From Octopus vulgaris (Eukaryota), in the NCBI GenBank assembly GCA_951406725.2, contig OX597820.1, forward strand, positions 3,782,001-3,846,000: a stretch of DNA of 64,000 nt. Direction: 5' to 3'. Position numbers and translations under genes: made by a program. Below, piece after piece: positions 760-57,659 of this stretch (position 1 is its first letter; each line of letters starts with the position of its first letter). The notes beneath the pieces were generated by a model. It was given only the letters and a program-made list of their open reading frames with translations, searched no databases and was not told the origin of the DNA.

Positions 760-897
760 GTTGCCCCGATGGAAAATATGGTAAAGGATGCACTAAAACA
801 TGCAGTCCCATGTGTATAGTACCAGGCTGCTTTGCAAACAATGGTAGTTGTAACTCTGGCTGTAAAGCAGGATTCCAAGGAAGGAAGTGTAATGAAG
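760..897 (+). CDS. Exon 1 (in window): EGF-like module [45 protein letters not shown]
   Basis: tgtag acceptor, G|gtaaca donor, 138 nt, phase 1-1, 8 Cys; absent from the ORF track. Confidence 0.9.
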
Positions 898-57500: not shown

Positions 57501-57659
57501 AAATTAATTTTTTAAATACACTTTGTCTATATTCTTTCTAACTTTGAGTTTTCCTTCTTCTTCTTCTTCTTCTTCTTATTTACTAACATTAACACCAATG
57601 CATTCGTTTCATTTCAGATGTATATTGCACCAACTAAAGAACCAAGAAAACGTAATTAA
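760..57659 (+). CDS. Multi-exon gene (17 coding exons in window, 5' end missing): EGF-repeat single-pass receptor tyrosine pseudokinase
   Basis: Manual splicing of 760-897, 3743-3880, 5900-6037, 7328-7468, 10176-10313, 12324-12461, 17861-18001, 19012-19149, 20804-20988, 24104-24272, 36702-36812, 40808-40980, 43288-43386, 47740-47804, 49988-50125, 54177-54276 and 57618-57659 gives one open frame (2192 nt) with compatible phases and AG/GT(GC) boundaries. Confidence 0.9.
1290..1752 (+). mobile_element. Abundant dispersed repeat (SINE/LINE-tail type) with internal ~61-bp tandem subrepeats and (GAT)n tail
   Basis: ggtggcatgtaaaaagc..cc units followed by ...ccatgccag.atggaaagcgga.gttaaa.gatgatgat; related copies near 1-190, 14780-15070(-), 16310-16555, 24660-25020(-), 29530-29800, 34650-35200(-), 39740-40150(-), 45240-45410(-), 49620-49915. 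Confidence 0.75.
2465..3434 (+). mobile_element. Tandem array of four ~220-bp piggyBac-like MITE units (TTAA-CCCTT...AAGGG-TTAA) with a ~24-bp spacer
   Basis: Four highly similar units with TTAA flanks, nested in another TTAACCC-type element (~2439-3628); a degenerate single copy lies at ~3942-4420. Confidence 0.75.
3743..3880 (+). CDS. Exon 2: EGF-like module [45 protein letters not shown]
   Basis: ttcag acceptor, G|gtgagg donor, 138 nt, 8 Cys. Confidence 0.92.
5275..5810 (+). mobile_element. tRNA-derived SINE (ggcgcaggagtggctgtgtggtaag head) with a nested antisense SINE of another family
   Basis: A/B-box-like head; same family at 40232-40643(-), 46192-46597(-) and 53063-53438(+). Confidence 0.75.
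5900..6037 (+). CDS. Exon 3: EGF-like module [45 protein letters not shown]
   Basis: tacag acceptor, G|gtcagt donor, 138 nt; lies inside ORF 5815..6078. Confidence 0.92.
7328..7468 (+). CDS. Exon 4: EGF-like module [46 protein letters not shown]
   Basis: Pyrimidine tract plus gaag acceptor; GC-type donor AG|gcaagt at the position homologous to the other EGF exons; 141 nt. Confidence 0.88.
7600..8235 (+). mobile_element. tRNA-headed hammerhead-bearing element with short 5' inversion, interrupted by a tRNA-Arg-like SINE
   Basis: Near-palindrome ttaaccactgcgccatatgcccatgggcatatggtgcagtg; head matches 37111-37180; resumes at 8165-8235 with gacacCTGATGA. Confidence 0.65.
7772..8160 (+). mobile_element. 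tRNA-derived SINE (gtggaggcgcaatggcc head, CAACAG tail)
   Basis: A box tggcctaatgg, B box gtttcgattcc; near-identical copy at 48669-49046. Confidence 0.85.
8530..9062 (-). mobile_element. L1/Tx1-like LINE 3' fragment
   Basis: ORF 8561..9049(-) [17 protein letters not shown]...AKEVVWWRR resembles the C-terminal Cys/His region of L1/Tx1 ORF2; related to 31674-32500. Confidence 0.65.
10176..10313 (+). CDS. Exon 5: EGF-like module [45 protein letters not shown]
   Basis: aacag acceptor, G|gtaatg donor, 138 nt. Confidence 0.92.
10560..11260 (-). mobile_element. Degraded DNA transposase remnant
   Basis: ORF 10674..11021(-) [34 protein letters not shown] resembles a widespread metazoan transposase-like motif; frameshifted; superfamily not assigned. 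Confidence 0.6.
11328..12058 (-). mobile_element. Tandem array of three piggyBac-like MITE units, reverse complement of the 2465-3434 array
   Basis: TTAA at both ends; units contain gctagtgttaggaacataaa.tgtgactaaggtttggtgg; same spacer in reverse orientation. Confidence 0.8.
12324..12461 (+). CDS. Exon 6: EGF-like module [45 protein letters not shown]
   Basis: ttccag acceptor, T|gtaagt donor, 138 nt. Confidence 0.92.
13248..13780. mobile_element. Fold-back (Penelope-like pLTR) insertion: 230-bp near-perfect inverted repeat plus unpaired tail, inside (TA)n
   Basis: Arms 13248-13477 and 13479-13708, two mismatches seen, 1-nt centre. Confidence 0.8.
13595..13672 (+). ncRNA. Minimal type I hammerhead ribozyme motif (mirror copy on - strand ~13284-13361)
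   Basis: gcgg-CTGAAGA-a-ggcc...ggcc-c-GAAA-CATATG-TA^ccgc; palindromic stem III ACATATGT. Confidence 0.7.
17861..18001 (+). CDS. Exon 7: EGF-like module [46 protein letters not shown]
   Basis: actag acceptor, G|gtaaga donor, 141 nt. Confidence 0.92.
18631..18884. mobile_element. Fold-back Penelope-like insertion with two G3-C8 hammerhead motifs and an 11-bp TSD
   Basis: AATTAACTAAC at 18620-18630 and 18885-18895; inverted arms centred near 18701; same family as 51682-52043. Confidence 0.75.
19012..19149 (+). CDS. Exon 8: EGF-like module [45 protein letters not shown]
   Basis: tttag acceptor, C|gtaagc donor, 138 nt. Confidence 0.92.
19911..19955 (+). ncRNA. Minimal hammerhead ribozyme motif within an inverted-repeat element (19823-20122)
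   Basis: tctgtg-CTGATGA-aggg aaataa cctg-GAAA-TCATGA-TA^cacaga; 6-bp stem I, palindromic ATCATGAT. Confidence 0.7.
20804..20988 (+). CDS. Exon 9: transmembrane helix ([26 protein letters not shown]) with basic stop-transfer SKKKKDK
   Basis: ttcag acceptor, AAG|gtaggt donor, phase 1 to 0. Confidence 0.9.
21040..21620. repeat. CT-rich compound microsatellite with ~78-bp higher-order duplication
   Basis: Block ctttctttcactctctttccttctctgtctctctctg repeated about 4 times. Confidence 0.85.
22415..23505 (-). mobile_element. Tc1-like DNA transposon, degraded
   Basis: TIRs cacagacatggtagaagtaaatagacacc / ggcatctatttacttctatcgtgcttgag with TA flanks; HTH ORF 23013..23321(-), plus FSDES and [10 protein letters not shown] remnants. 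Confidence 0.85.
24104..24272 (+). CDS. Exon 10: kinase subdomains I-II ([13 protein letters not shown]...EVALLIVK)
   Basis: cacag acceptor, G|gtaagg donor; degenerate Gly loop, beta3 Lys replaced by Leu. Confidence 0.88.
25829..28371. repeat. 28-bp minisatellite, about 90 copies (aatgtgatggYtagcagaaatggttgat)
   Basis: Direct reading; two interspersed T/C variants. Confidence 0.97.
29893..30245 (+). mobile_element. R4/Dong-like non-LTR retrotransposon 3' end inside (TAA)n
   Basis: Translates [50 protein letters not shown] (restriction-like endonuclease C-terminus); TAA repeats on both sides. Confidence 0.75.
30260..30660 (-). mobile_element. Nested tRNA-SINE copies (ggcgagctggcagaatc...gactttgcctttcatcc family)
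   Basis: Two overlapping copies; same arrangement at 39300-39700; single copies near 4125-4320, 12065-12280, 17470-17685, 19440-19640, 54725-54925, 57036-57250. Confidence 0.75.
31674..32500 (+). mobile_element. Tx1/L1-like LINE 3' end embedded in a (TATC)n microsatellite
   Basis: [17 protein letters not shown]...VAMAKECI, T-rich 3' UTR, AATAAA at ~32489, (TATC)n on both sides. Confidence 0.7.
33010..33775. repeat. (GGT)n microsatellite with periodic CTT interruptions
   Basis: Direct reading; source of the poly-P/T/H/V/G ORFs. Confidence 0.95.
33973..34511. mobile_element. piggyBac-like MITE (TTAA-CCCATT...AATGGG-TTAA) inserted in a SINE head
   Basis: TTAA at 33973-33976 and 34508-34511; flanks rejoin as gccgtgttg|ttaa|gaagcttg. 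Confidence 0.7.
35545..36117 (-). mobile_element. Internally deleted Tc1-like element related to 22415-23505
   Basis: ~45-bp TIRs cacagacatgtaggaagtaaa.agacac; HTH remnant on - strand. Confidence 0.8.
36702..36812 (+). CDS. Exon 11: kinase alphaC/IV ([29 protein letters not shown])
   Basis: tacag acceptor, G|gtttgt donor; LGQHPNI motif typical of FGFR/Tie/RET-type kinases. Confidence 0.88.
36860..37350. mobile_element. Head-to-head pair of the tRNA-headed hammerhead-bearing element
   Basis: Left arm 36860-37110 is the reverse complement of right arm 37111-37350; hammerhead remnants at 36940-36983(-) and 37255-37300(+). Confidence 0.75.
38319..39213 (+). mobile_element. Non-autonomous mariner with ~125-bp TIRs
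   Basis: TIR ...ttaataagtatttggactgttgccatagtaac... / ...gttactatggcaacagtccagatacttatt...; remnants [25 protein letters not shown]. Confidence 0.8.
40808..40980 (+). CDS. Exon 12: kinase V-VIa ([17 protein letters not shown]...[16 protein letters not shown])
   Basis: atcag acceptor, CAG|gtattt donor. Confidence 0.9.
41737..42289. mobile_element. piggyBac-like MITE with internal insertion
   Basis: TTAA-CCCTTTC ... GAAAGGG-TTAA; body similar to 3435-3628 and 57280-57405. Confidence 0.55.
42975..43140. mobile_element. Small fold-back MITE with repeated ggacaattaccc / gggtaattgtcc motifs
   Basis: About three motif copies per side in inverted orientation. Confidence 0.55.
43288..43386 (+). CDS. 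Exon 13: kinase VIb-VII ([33 protein letters not shown])
   Basis: ttccag acceptor, AAG|gtatgt donor; HRD>HGN and DFG>GFG. Confidence 0.92.
43639..44846 (-). mobile_element. Mariner (Hsmar1/cecropia-like) transposon with frameshifted transposase
   Basis: TA-flanked TIRs ttaggttgtcaagaaagttcttgc / gcaagaactttcttgacaacttaa; - strand remnants [23 protein letters not shown] and SPDLSPTDY. Confidence 0.9.
45770..46072 (-). mobile_element. tRNA-derived SINE sharing head and body with 7772/48669 but with a different 3' tail
   Basis: Same gtggaggcgcaatggccc head; flanking direct repeat ttatagtatatata. Confidence 0.85.
47740..47804 (+). CDS. Exon 14: kinase VIII-IX ([22 protein letters not shown])
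   Basis: ttcag acceptor, TT|gtaagt donor; KWQAIE corresponds to KWMAPE. Confidence 0.88.
47935..48422. repeat. 17-bp minisatellite (gactctctgaatgacat), about 29 copies
   Basis: Direct reading; explains the [15 protein letters not shown]s. Confidence 0.95.
48490..49290 (+). mobile_element. RTE-like LINE 3' fragment split by a SINE (48669-49046, TSD gcagcaacaga)
   Basis: [17 protein letters not shown] and [19 protein letters not shown] remnants; 11-bp direct repeats at 48657-48667 and 49047-49057. Confidence 0.7.
49988..50125 (+). CDS. Exon 15: kinase IX-X ([46 protein letters not shown])
   Basis: ttcag acceptor, TT|gtgagt donor; classic tyrosine kinase [14 protein letters not shown] motif. 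Confidence 0.93.
50534..50712. mobile_element. Short mariner-type MITE
   Basis: Terminal inverted repeat cgatggggtgttgaa / ttcagcaccccatca. Confidence 0.5.
51682..52043. mobile_element. Fold-back Penelope-like insertion (G3-C8 hammerhead family) with an 11-bp TSD
   Basis: ATATTTTTATA at 51671-51681 and 52044-52054; ~120-bp inverted arms; intact motif at 51761-51810(-). Confidence 0.8.
54177..54276 (+). CDS. Exon 16: kinase XI ([33 protein letters not shown])
   Basis: tttcag acceptor, CW...R motif, GAG|gtctgt donor. Confidence 0.85.
57618..57659 (+). CDS. Exon 17: probable terminal coding exon [13 protein letters not shown]
   Basis: Strong tttcag acceptor in phase 0, TAA at 57657-57659, followed by AT-rich UTR-like sequence (AATAAA near 58293 and 60702). 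Confidence 0.65.
   Translation: MYIAPTKEPRKRN

Follow-up and report, generated by a model that had tools for sequence, protein, structure and literature searches.

A conserved EGF-repeat receptor with a predicted tyrosine pseudokinase domain in octopods and cuttlefish, a likely relative of mollusc Tie-like receptors

Analysis of a 64,000-nucleotide stretch of Octopus vulgaris contig OX597820.1 (3,782,001 to 3,846,000; here called the window, to whose positions coordinates refer) revealed a gene encoding an epidermal growth factor (EGF)-repeat receptor with a degenerate tyrosine kinase domain. The gene is positioned on the plus strand at 760-57659, where 17 coding exons with compatible phases give 729 codons and a stop codon ending at 57659. 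All acceptors are AG and all donors are GT, except for a single GC donor at 7469-7470, which forms a GC-AG intron after the fourth window exon. The open 17-exon frame had been proposed in a first-pass annotation made from the sequence alone, and it was borne out by these splice sites and by a public protein. The translation is identical to O. vulgaris protein P0004 (CAI9725145.1; 811 amino acids; labeled "angiopoietin-1 receptor-like isoform X2") at 369/369 ectodomain positions and 281/281 kinase-region positions. Mapping of P0004 back to the genome placed a signal-peptide exon approximately 35.6 kb upstream of the window and a further EGF exon, which supplies a ninth repeat, approximately 1.2 kb upstream. 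The whole gene comprises 19 coding exons, 17 inside the window and 2 upstream. A second C terminus (P0005) results from read-through of the exon 16 donor (54277-54303) and consists of a short, Tyr-free tail.

The deduced protein contains a signal peptide, nine 8-Cys EGF-type repeats, a single transmembrane (TM) helix, a tyrosine kinase fold, and a short tail; the signal peptide and TM helix were called from hydropathy alone. A Pfam scan of the whole protein predicted a tyrosine kinase domain (PF07714, E 2.6e-51), gave weak matches to EGF_laminin and EGF_PEAR1L, and found no immunoglobulin (Ig) or fibronectin type III (FN3) domain, the nine EGF-type repeats filling the ectodomain. A structural model generated from a 101-sequence alignment had a bilobed kinase fold with a predicted local distance difference test score (pLDDT) of 89.4. 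This alignment is made of kinases and biases the model toward a kinase fold, which the model from the single sequence (pLDDT only 36.4) did not recover. A Foldseek search with the aligned model returned FGFR kinases as top matches (FGFR2, E 2.6e-21; VIA Z 30.6), and the best solved sequence relative was TIE2 (E 1e-38), followed by ROS1 (2e-32) and RET (2e-31). The fold prediction and the TIE2 and RET matches support the FGFR/Tie/RET-like fold that had been suggested before.

Catalytic columns were assigned by gap-free local alignments to TIE2, mollusc, and FGFR kinases. The beta3 Lys column holds Leu, the alphaC Glu column holds Ala, HRD is changed to HGN and DFG to GFG, and the first Gly of the Gly loop is replaced by Asn or Thr. 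The degenerate motifs that had been read from the sequence were all located in the window, namely the NTGCFG loop (Table 1), EVALLIVK (24248-24271), HGNLCAQN (43294-43317), and GFGFTKP (43354-43374), together with the C-lobe motifs DEFKWQAIE (47740-47766) and GGVPY (50028-50042). The alphaC Glu, described earlier as displaced, could be placed one residue before its column. The losses of Lys, Glu, HRD, and DFG are present in all 20 cephalopod sequences retrieved (five from an octopod cluster and 15 listed of the 24 in a cuttlefish cluster). The only Lys nearby, at the end of VALLIVK, is replaced by Arg in the cuttlefish cluster and would therefore be a poor substitute for the beta3 Lys. The span from DFG to Trp comprises 16 residues, compared with 23 in Tie-type kinases and 26 in FGFR and a RET-like sequence, so that 7 residues are missing from the activation segment relative to the Tie type. 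Its shortness thus agreed with the first reading, but the reported lack of Tyr turned out to be species specific: the activation-loop Tyr (DEYKW) is kept in 17 of the 20 sequences and absent from 3 (O. vulgaris and O. sinensis), with Phe at this position in O. vulgaris. The His, the catalytic-loop Asn, the Phe of GFG, and the fold are retained. Judged from these residues, the domain is very unlikely to carry out phosphotransfer. Loss of all three catalytic residues, with the fold and the single-pass layout kept in a spliced and conserved gene, supports its status as a receptor tyrosine pseudokinase, which would rank with the most thoroughly disabled receptor pseudokinases.

The kinase region of O. 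vulgaris is identical to that of Argonauta at 264/272 positions (97%); an intact octopus paralogue described below reaches 264/276. Compared with cuttlefish, 254/281 kinase positions (90%) and 248/369 ectodomain positions (67%) are identical. Among four cephalopod sequences, 32/272 kinase positions vary, only one of them in the beta2-beta3-alphaC stretch. Tree branch lengths amounted to approximately 2.3 changes per site on the pseudokinase stem and 0.01 to 0.08 in the crown. Contigs from three of four sequencing runs, representing three studies, joined exons 11, 12, and 13 across the introns; for the fourth run (X7), no spliced piece was present among the contigs listed. None of the runs is recorded as RNA and their RNA nature is guessed, although the contig joins show spliced molecules. 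The RNA check proposed along with the first-pass annotation thus holds for exons 11 to 13; the remaining junctions are supported by orthologues and by the annotated protein of identical sequence. No alternative letter was found in the HGN/GFG exon of the run contigs, and the two coding differences listed between contigs and window are both synonymous. Since the dead domain is 97% and 90% identical across octopods and cuttlefish and its exons are spliced in the contigs, the sequence data indicate that the gene is alive and not a decaying pseudogene, in line with the maintained receptor claimed before. A chance exon chain was likewise ruled out: none of 20,000 random AG..GT chains with matching exon sizes was open (fewest stops, 11), and protein conservation and the spliced contigs also exclude it, as they do a pseudogene.

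Table 1. Coding exons of the receptor pseudokinase gene inside the window
Feature	Position	Strand	Remark
EGF-type repeat 2 of 9 (one exon per repeat, phase 1-1)	760..897	+	repeat 1 and signal-peptide exon upstream of window
EGF-type repeat 3	3743..3880	+	
EGF-type repeat 4	5900..6037	+	
EGF-type repeat 5, then GC donor	7328..7468	+	
EGF-type repeat 6	10176..10313	+	
EGF-type repeat 7	12324..12461	+	
EGF-type repeat 8	17861..18001	+	
EGF-type repeat 9, membrane-proximal	19012..19149	+	
TM helix, basic stop-transfer run, start of Tyr-free juxtamembrane segment	20804..20988	+	hydropathy maximum around residues 465-490
Kinase beta1-beta3; Gly loop NTGCFG 24185-24202; beta3 Lys to Leu (TTA, 24257-24259)	24104..24272	+	
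alphaC-beta4 exon, 111 bp; Ala (36740-36742) at the Glu column, directly preceded by Glu	36702..36812	+	spliced in contigs of presumed RNA runs
beta5, hinge, alphaD, short insert, alphaE	40808..40980	+	spliced in contigs of presumed RNA runs
Catalytic loop with HGN (AAT at 43300, Asn for Asp); GFG (GGT at 43354, Gly for Asp)	43288..43386	+	spliced in contigs of presumed RNA runs
Remainder of shortened activation segment, WQAIE, alphaF start	47740..47804	+	
alphaF-alphaG-alphaH exon, 138 bp, best-preserved kinase part	49988..50125	+	Pfam PF07714, E 1.8e-11
alphaH-alphaI exon, 100 bp; donor read-through gives short Tyr-free tail	54177..54276	+	
Tail exon, one Tyr (MYIAP), stop codon	57618..57659	+	Tyr position equals first tail Tyr of TIE2 and intact mollusc family

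A word-based search with the kinase region revealed only two close clusters, octopods and cuttlefish, with the next match at 33% identity. When 1.84 billion representatives were searched in full with HMMER, nothing else above 40% identity was found among the best 150 matches, and the best non-cephalopod match had 40%; neither search revealed an orthologue outside octopods and cuttlefish. No match was named as squid or Nautilus; these groups may be absent from the searched collection or concealed in it, for which reason we only infer a coleoid range. A genome search with the pseudokinase, read as a lower bound, gave a single locus above 50% identity. A search for an active paralogue nearby had been suggested; when the 264 kb surrounding the gene were searched by tblastn with three active kinases, only the gene's own exons were recovered, and the intact receptor lies on another contig (G000:C24). 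This look-alike (the C24 paralogue), detected first as a weak genome match, has EGF exons, a TM helix, GHGHFG, VAVK, HRD, and DFG and corresponds to stored protein P0205/P0298. Its locus extends over approximately 47,602,800-47,669,900; models P0205/P0298 lack a two-Tyr tail exon (near 47,669,822) and a candidate EGF-like exon (near 47,630,470).

From the TM exon to the tail, 9/9 intron phases are the same in the pseudokinase gene and the C24 gene, the comparison being made with the octopus gene only. The exon sizes are 170, 166, 111, 188, 114, 71, 138, and 100 bp in C24 and 185, 169, 111, 173, 99, 65, 138, and 100 bp in the pseudokinase gene, those of 111, 138, and 100 bp being identical. Both the C24 gene and the cuttlefish cluster share the exon 16 read-through tail, and this alternative ending may therefore be of old origin. 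The octopus FGFR gene has most kinase introns in common as well, with a different first kinase intron and a last exon of 106 bp; the octopus ROR- and MuSK-like kinase domains are each encoded in a single open frame.

Intact receptors of this kind form a mollusc EGF-repeat Tie-like family whose members, from bivalves, gastropods, a chiton, and Argonauta, have 58 to 72% kinase identity to a bivalve member. The Lys, HRD, and DFG patterns were matched in 36/37 members. All 21 members checked have a juxtamembrane Tyr, and the juxtamembrane segment of the pseudokinase has none. Of the two pseudokinase tails, one carries a Tyr, within MYIAP, where the family has its first tail Tyr; the other is Tyr free. 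Against the last repeat of the family, the highest scores were obtained with the two membrane-proximal repeats of the pseudokinase (118 to 120 versus 80 to 94). After the mollusc family, deuterostome Tie-like kinases follow in similarity, and the best-matching solved single-domain relative is TIE2.

Descent of the pseudokinase from a mollusc EGF-Tie-like gene by duplication is probable; it is argued from architecture, introns, and parsimony, because the sequence trees leave the parent undecided. In a 46-row mixture-model tree (46 of the 82 rows used in FastTree), the pseudokinase is sister to the mollusc family with support of 87/71, below the starring threshold, and the C-lobe tree agrees with support of 69; the N-lobe tree, with a pseudokinase branch of 2.9, was uninformative. 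Several results weigh against this descent. Two 27-row trees placed the pseudokinase outside the Tie-like group, near cnidarian receptors, one of them with Shimodaira-Hasegawa support of 96 for a Tie-like group excluding it, and FastTree, itself uninformative, also placed it outside. Approximately unbiased (AU) tests, which on the second 27-row tree left out canonical Tie and ROR, rejected none of the mollusc family, FGFR, RET, and ROR as sister. Identity to the C24 paralogue (83/259, approximately 32%) is about the same as that to TIE, RET, and FGFR (30 to 33%), the cnidarian profile scores highest (196 versus 172 to 176 bits), and only 4/21 diagnostic columns of the mollusc family are common to the pseudokinase. 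The EGF module has at least 86 matches in the octopus genome, and since it is common there and most kinase introns are common to FGFR, architecture and introns are not unique markers. Mean identities to all kinase groups range from 28 to 33%. Canonical TIE as sister was rejected by the AU test under LG+G4 (27-row; p 0.037) but not on the C-lobe under C20 (p 0.55). The ectodomain had been described as MEGF10/Draper/SCARF-like, which applies to its 8-Cys EGF repeats; a fresh graft is unnecessary because the intact mollusc family already joins an EGF array to a Tie-like kinase.

Overall, we consider it somewhat better than an even bet that this spliced, conserved, predictably inactive single-pass receptor of octopods and cuttlefish arose as a duplicate of the mollusc Tie-like receptor and works as a non-catalytic co-receptor of that kind of receptor, in a role comparable to that of EphB6 and EphA10. 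The duplicate would have lost catalysis and then been frozen by selection. The dead domain, which is more conserved than the ectodomain, appears to be kept for its surface. The EGF stalk, the TM helix, or the kinase surface would mediate clustering of the pseudokinase with an active kinase, and the dead domain would tune this partner. The tail Tyr would be phosphorylated in trans and recruit an SH2 adaptor, and docking would be turned on or off by the choice between the Tyr-bearing and the Tyr-free tail. The YxxP context of the tail Tyr fits Crk/Nck/Abl-type SH2 domains. This sequence of clustering, partner tuning, trans-phosphorylation, and SH2 recruitment stands at about even chances. EphB4 phosphorylates EphB6, and HER3 activates EGFR/HER2 (PMC13259870, section 5); the EphB4/EphB6 and EGFR/HER3 pairs make the C24 paralogue the natural partner candidate. 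That the partner is specifically this paralogue is a tentative suggestion, against which it counts that the paralogue lies on another contig and, having kept its own juxtamembrane and tail tyrosines, needs no docking partner. A coleoid active/dead Tie-like pair, in which the dead copy would tune its active sister in vessel or blood cells in parallel to vertebrate TIE1/TIE2, within a closed circulation of independent evolutionary origin, is improbable.

The extreme divergence from the paralogue (83/259; N-lobe branch of 2.9) argues against a kept heterodimer interface and for a stand-alone scaffold that would self-cluster on ligand or cell contact, its frozen surface read by a Src/Abl-type kinase or a phosphorylation-independent binder and the paralogue being only an ancestor. 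The low variability of the kinase region (32/272 positions, one in beta2-beta3-alphaC) is as expected for a dedicated binding surface, and PTK7, ROR, and RYK work with unrelated co-receptors (PMC13259870). Eph and HER pseudokinases with active paralogues, on the other hand, do act with those (PMC13259870), and we regard the scaffold as unlikely, though with appreciable weight. The ectodomain might instead compete for the ligand of the paralogue as a dominant-negative decoy with a passive intracellular part. The common EGF module, with the membrane-proximal repeat scores given above, the missing juxtamembrane Tyr, and the isoform without tail Tyr would fit such a decoy, but a passive decoy should not have a dead domain far more conserved than its ectodomain (90% versus 67%), which leaves it little probability.

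The pseudokinase might also be a mollusc orthologue of STYK1/NOK, or of another old lineage, with its ectodomain kept, and not a recent EGF-Tie duplicate. The first loop Gly and the alphaC Glu are missing from human STYK1 as well, which has an HG loop and reads GLG for DFG (PMC8662651; by eye). STYK1 has three introns in common with the Tie/FGFR/RET group (PMC4898815), and a STYK1 cluster ranked 10th of 30 in a feature search of a type that otherwise gave generic kinase clusters (a lead only). No STYK1 sequence was among the rows of the trees. STYK1, however, keeps the beta3 Lys and the catalytic Asp, reads WLAPE, and has a 22-residue ectodomain (PMC13259870, PMC8662651), and it is counted in chordates only in the available data of PMC8662651. 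An old lineage should have left bivalve or gastropod relatives, of which none was found among the best 150 matches from the 1.84 billion representatives, and this origin is very unlikely. Cephalopods recode many mRNAs, and the retained fold, His, catalytic-loop Asn, and Phe could suit an atypical active enzyme or repair by adenosine-to-inosine (A-to-I) editing, with AAT changed to GAT restoring the catalytic Asp. Neither the beta3 Lys codon (TTA) nor the DFG Asp codon (GGT) can be restored in this way. The HGN/GFG exon was unchanged in the contigs of three runs, which shows no majority repair of the Asn codon, contigs dropping rare variants, and 12/12 listed Logan-derived proteins read HGN. 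An active or edited enzyme is extremely unlikely.

If the preferred reading of a duplicated co-receptor holds, the locus is a natural case of pseudokinase birth, with a long burst of change that gave way to stasis equal in tightness to that of the active look-alike, while the genome still carries the probable parent in intact form. According to the available text of PMC13259870, none of the eight human receptor pseudokinases derives from a Tie-like gene. The database label "angiopoietin-1 receptor-like", implying an active angiopoietin receptor, is corrected by these results. A pan-molluscan EGF-repeat Tie-like family also comes to light, left unclassified by the holozoan kinome survey: in the data available from PMC8662651, 141 mollusc kinases are unclassified, no Tie and no STYK1 are counted in six molluscs, and among 461 Tie sequences, 6 are scored as pseudokinases, none of them molluscan (supplement). 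Oyster Tie is expressed around metamorphosis (PMC4883820), and the octopus brain atlas describes endothelial cells with vegfr and hemocytes with svep1 (PMC9712504); in three supplement text files of that atlas, the gene is not mentioned. If the pair acts in vessels, it would make the closed circulation that cephalopods evolved convergently accessible to experimental tests. Literature searches, with thin coverage of subscription journals, found no paper on this protein, and the receptor pseudokinase is apparently undescribed so far.

Further observations concern the introns and related sequences. The intron between the beta3 and alphaC exons contains an approximately 2.5-kb minisatellite with a 27-base unit and strong G skew (approximately 25850-28370), and an extended (GGT)n tract and tandem copies of a 24-base unit lie in introns at 33000-33750 and 47920-48435. 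Intronic remnants at 23016-23378, 35580-35960, and 38300-39200 resemble Tc1/mariner transposase genes. Cuttlefish-cluster isoforms P0007-P0012, P0017, and P0020 contain an extra 23-residue juxtamembrane exon with two Tyr, which was not found in window intron 20989-24103. The same EGF-type exon is also found in large clusters (MEGF-like genes) at C25 21.08-21.22 Mb, C14 73.3-75.1 Mb, C20 4.08 Mb, and on C8. An intron-less, stop-interrupted FGFR kinase copy at C19:5541495-5542052 was probably processed from the C22 FGFR gene. A horsehair-worm receptor (P0080) has an intact Tie-like kinase and an ectodomain that by eye resembles WSC and FN3 repeats, recalling Drosophila Wsck.

The known systems nearest to the pseudokinase include the mollusc EGF-repeat Tie-like receptor tyrosine kinases (such as CAI9740442.1, KAK3612663.1, and ESP05685.1; labels vary). 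They and the pseudokinase are alike in signal peptide, EGF array, TM helix, kinase, intron phases, and repeat spacing types; the intact receptors have the catalytic motifs, a juxtamembrane Tyr, and two tail Tyr, whereas the pseudokinase lacks these and has one tail Tyr. TIE2/TEK, the best solved relative, and TIE1 resemble it in the WxAIE motif, the tail Tyr position, and EGF-type repeats but differ in their Ig and FN3 domains, three repeats against nine, and kept catalytic residues. MEGF10, Draper, PEAR1, and SCARF have tandem 8-Cys EGF-type repeats in common with the pseudokinase, in which no EMI domain is listed. Their tails are kinase free, unlike the kinase fold found here. STYK1/NOK is likewise a pseudokinase of the same intron group with HG and GxG substitutions, but it keeps the Lys and the catalytic Asp, has almost no ectodomain, and is counted in chordates only, differing in all of these. 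The likeness to JAK2 JH2 pointed out in the first-pass annotation is true at the HGN motif, where HGNVCAKN (PMC8662651) and HGNLCAQN conform to HGNxCAxN. It does not extend further, since JH2 is cytoplasmic, stands in tandem with an active domain, and keeps the Lys and the DPG Asp (PMC8662651); the likeness is probably convergent. PTK7, ROR1/2, RYK, and ErbB3 (HER3), named earlier as precedents, each retain the beta3 Lys (PMC13259870, Table 2), and by motif loss EphA10 and EphB6 are closer, being those of the eight human receptor pseudokinases that lose all three residues (PMC13259870). These two belong to another family with another ectodomain, and the octopus protein lacks a SAM domain and additionally the first loop Gly and the alphaC Glu and has an activation segment shortened by 7 residues relative to the Tie type. 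Like it, they are single-pass receptors with the Lys and both Asp replaced, GFG is found also in EphA10, and both live beside active paralogues.

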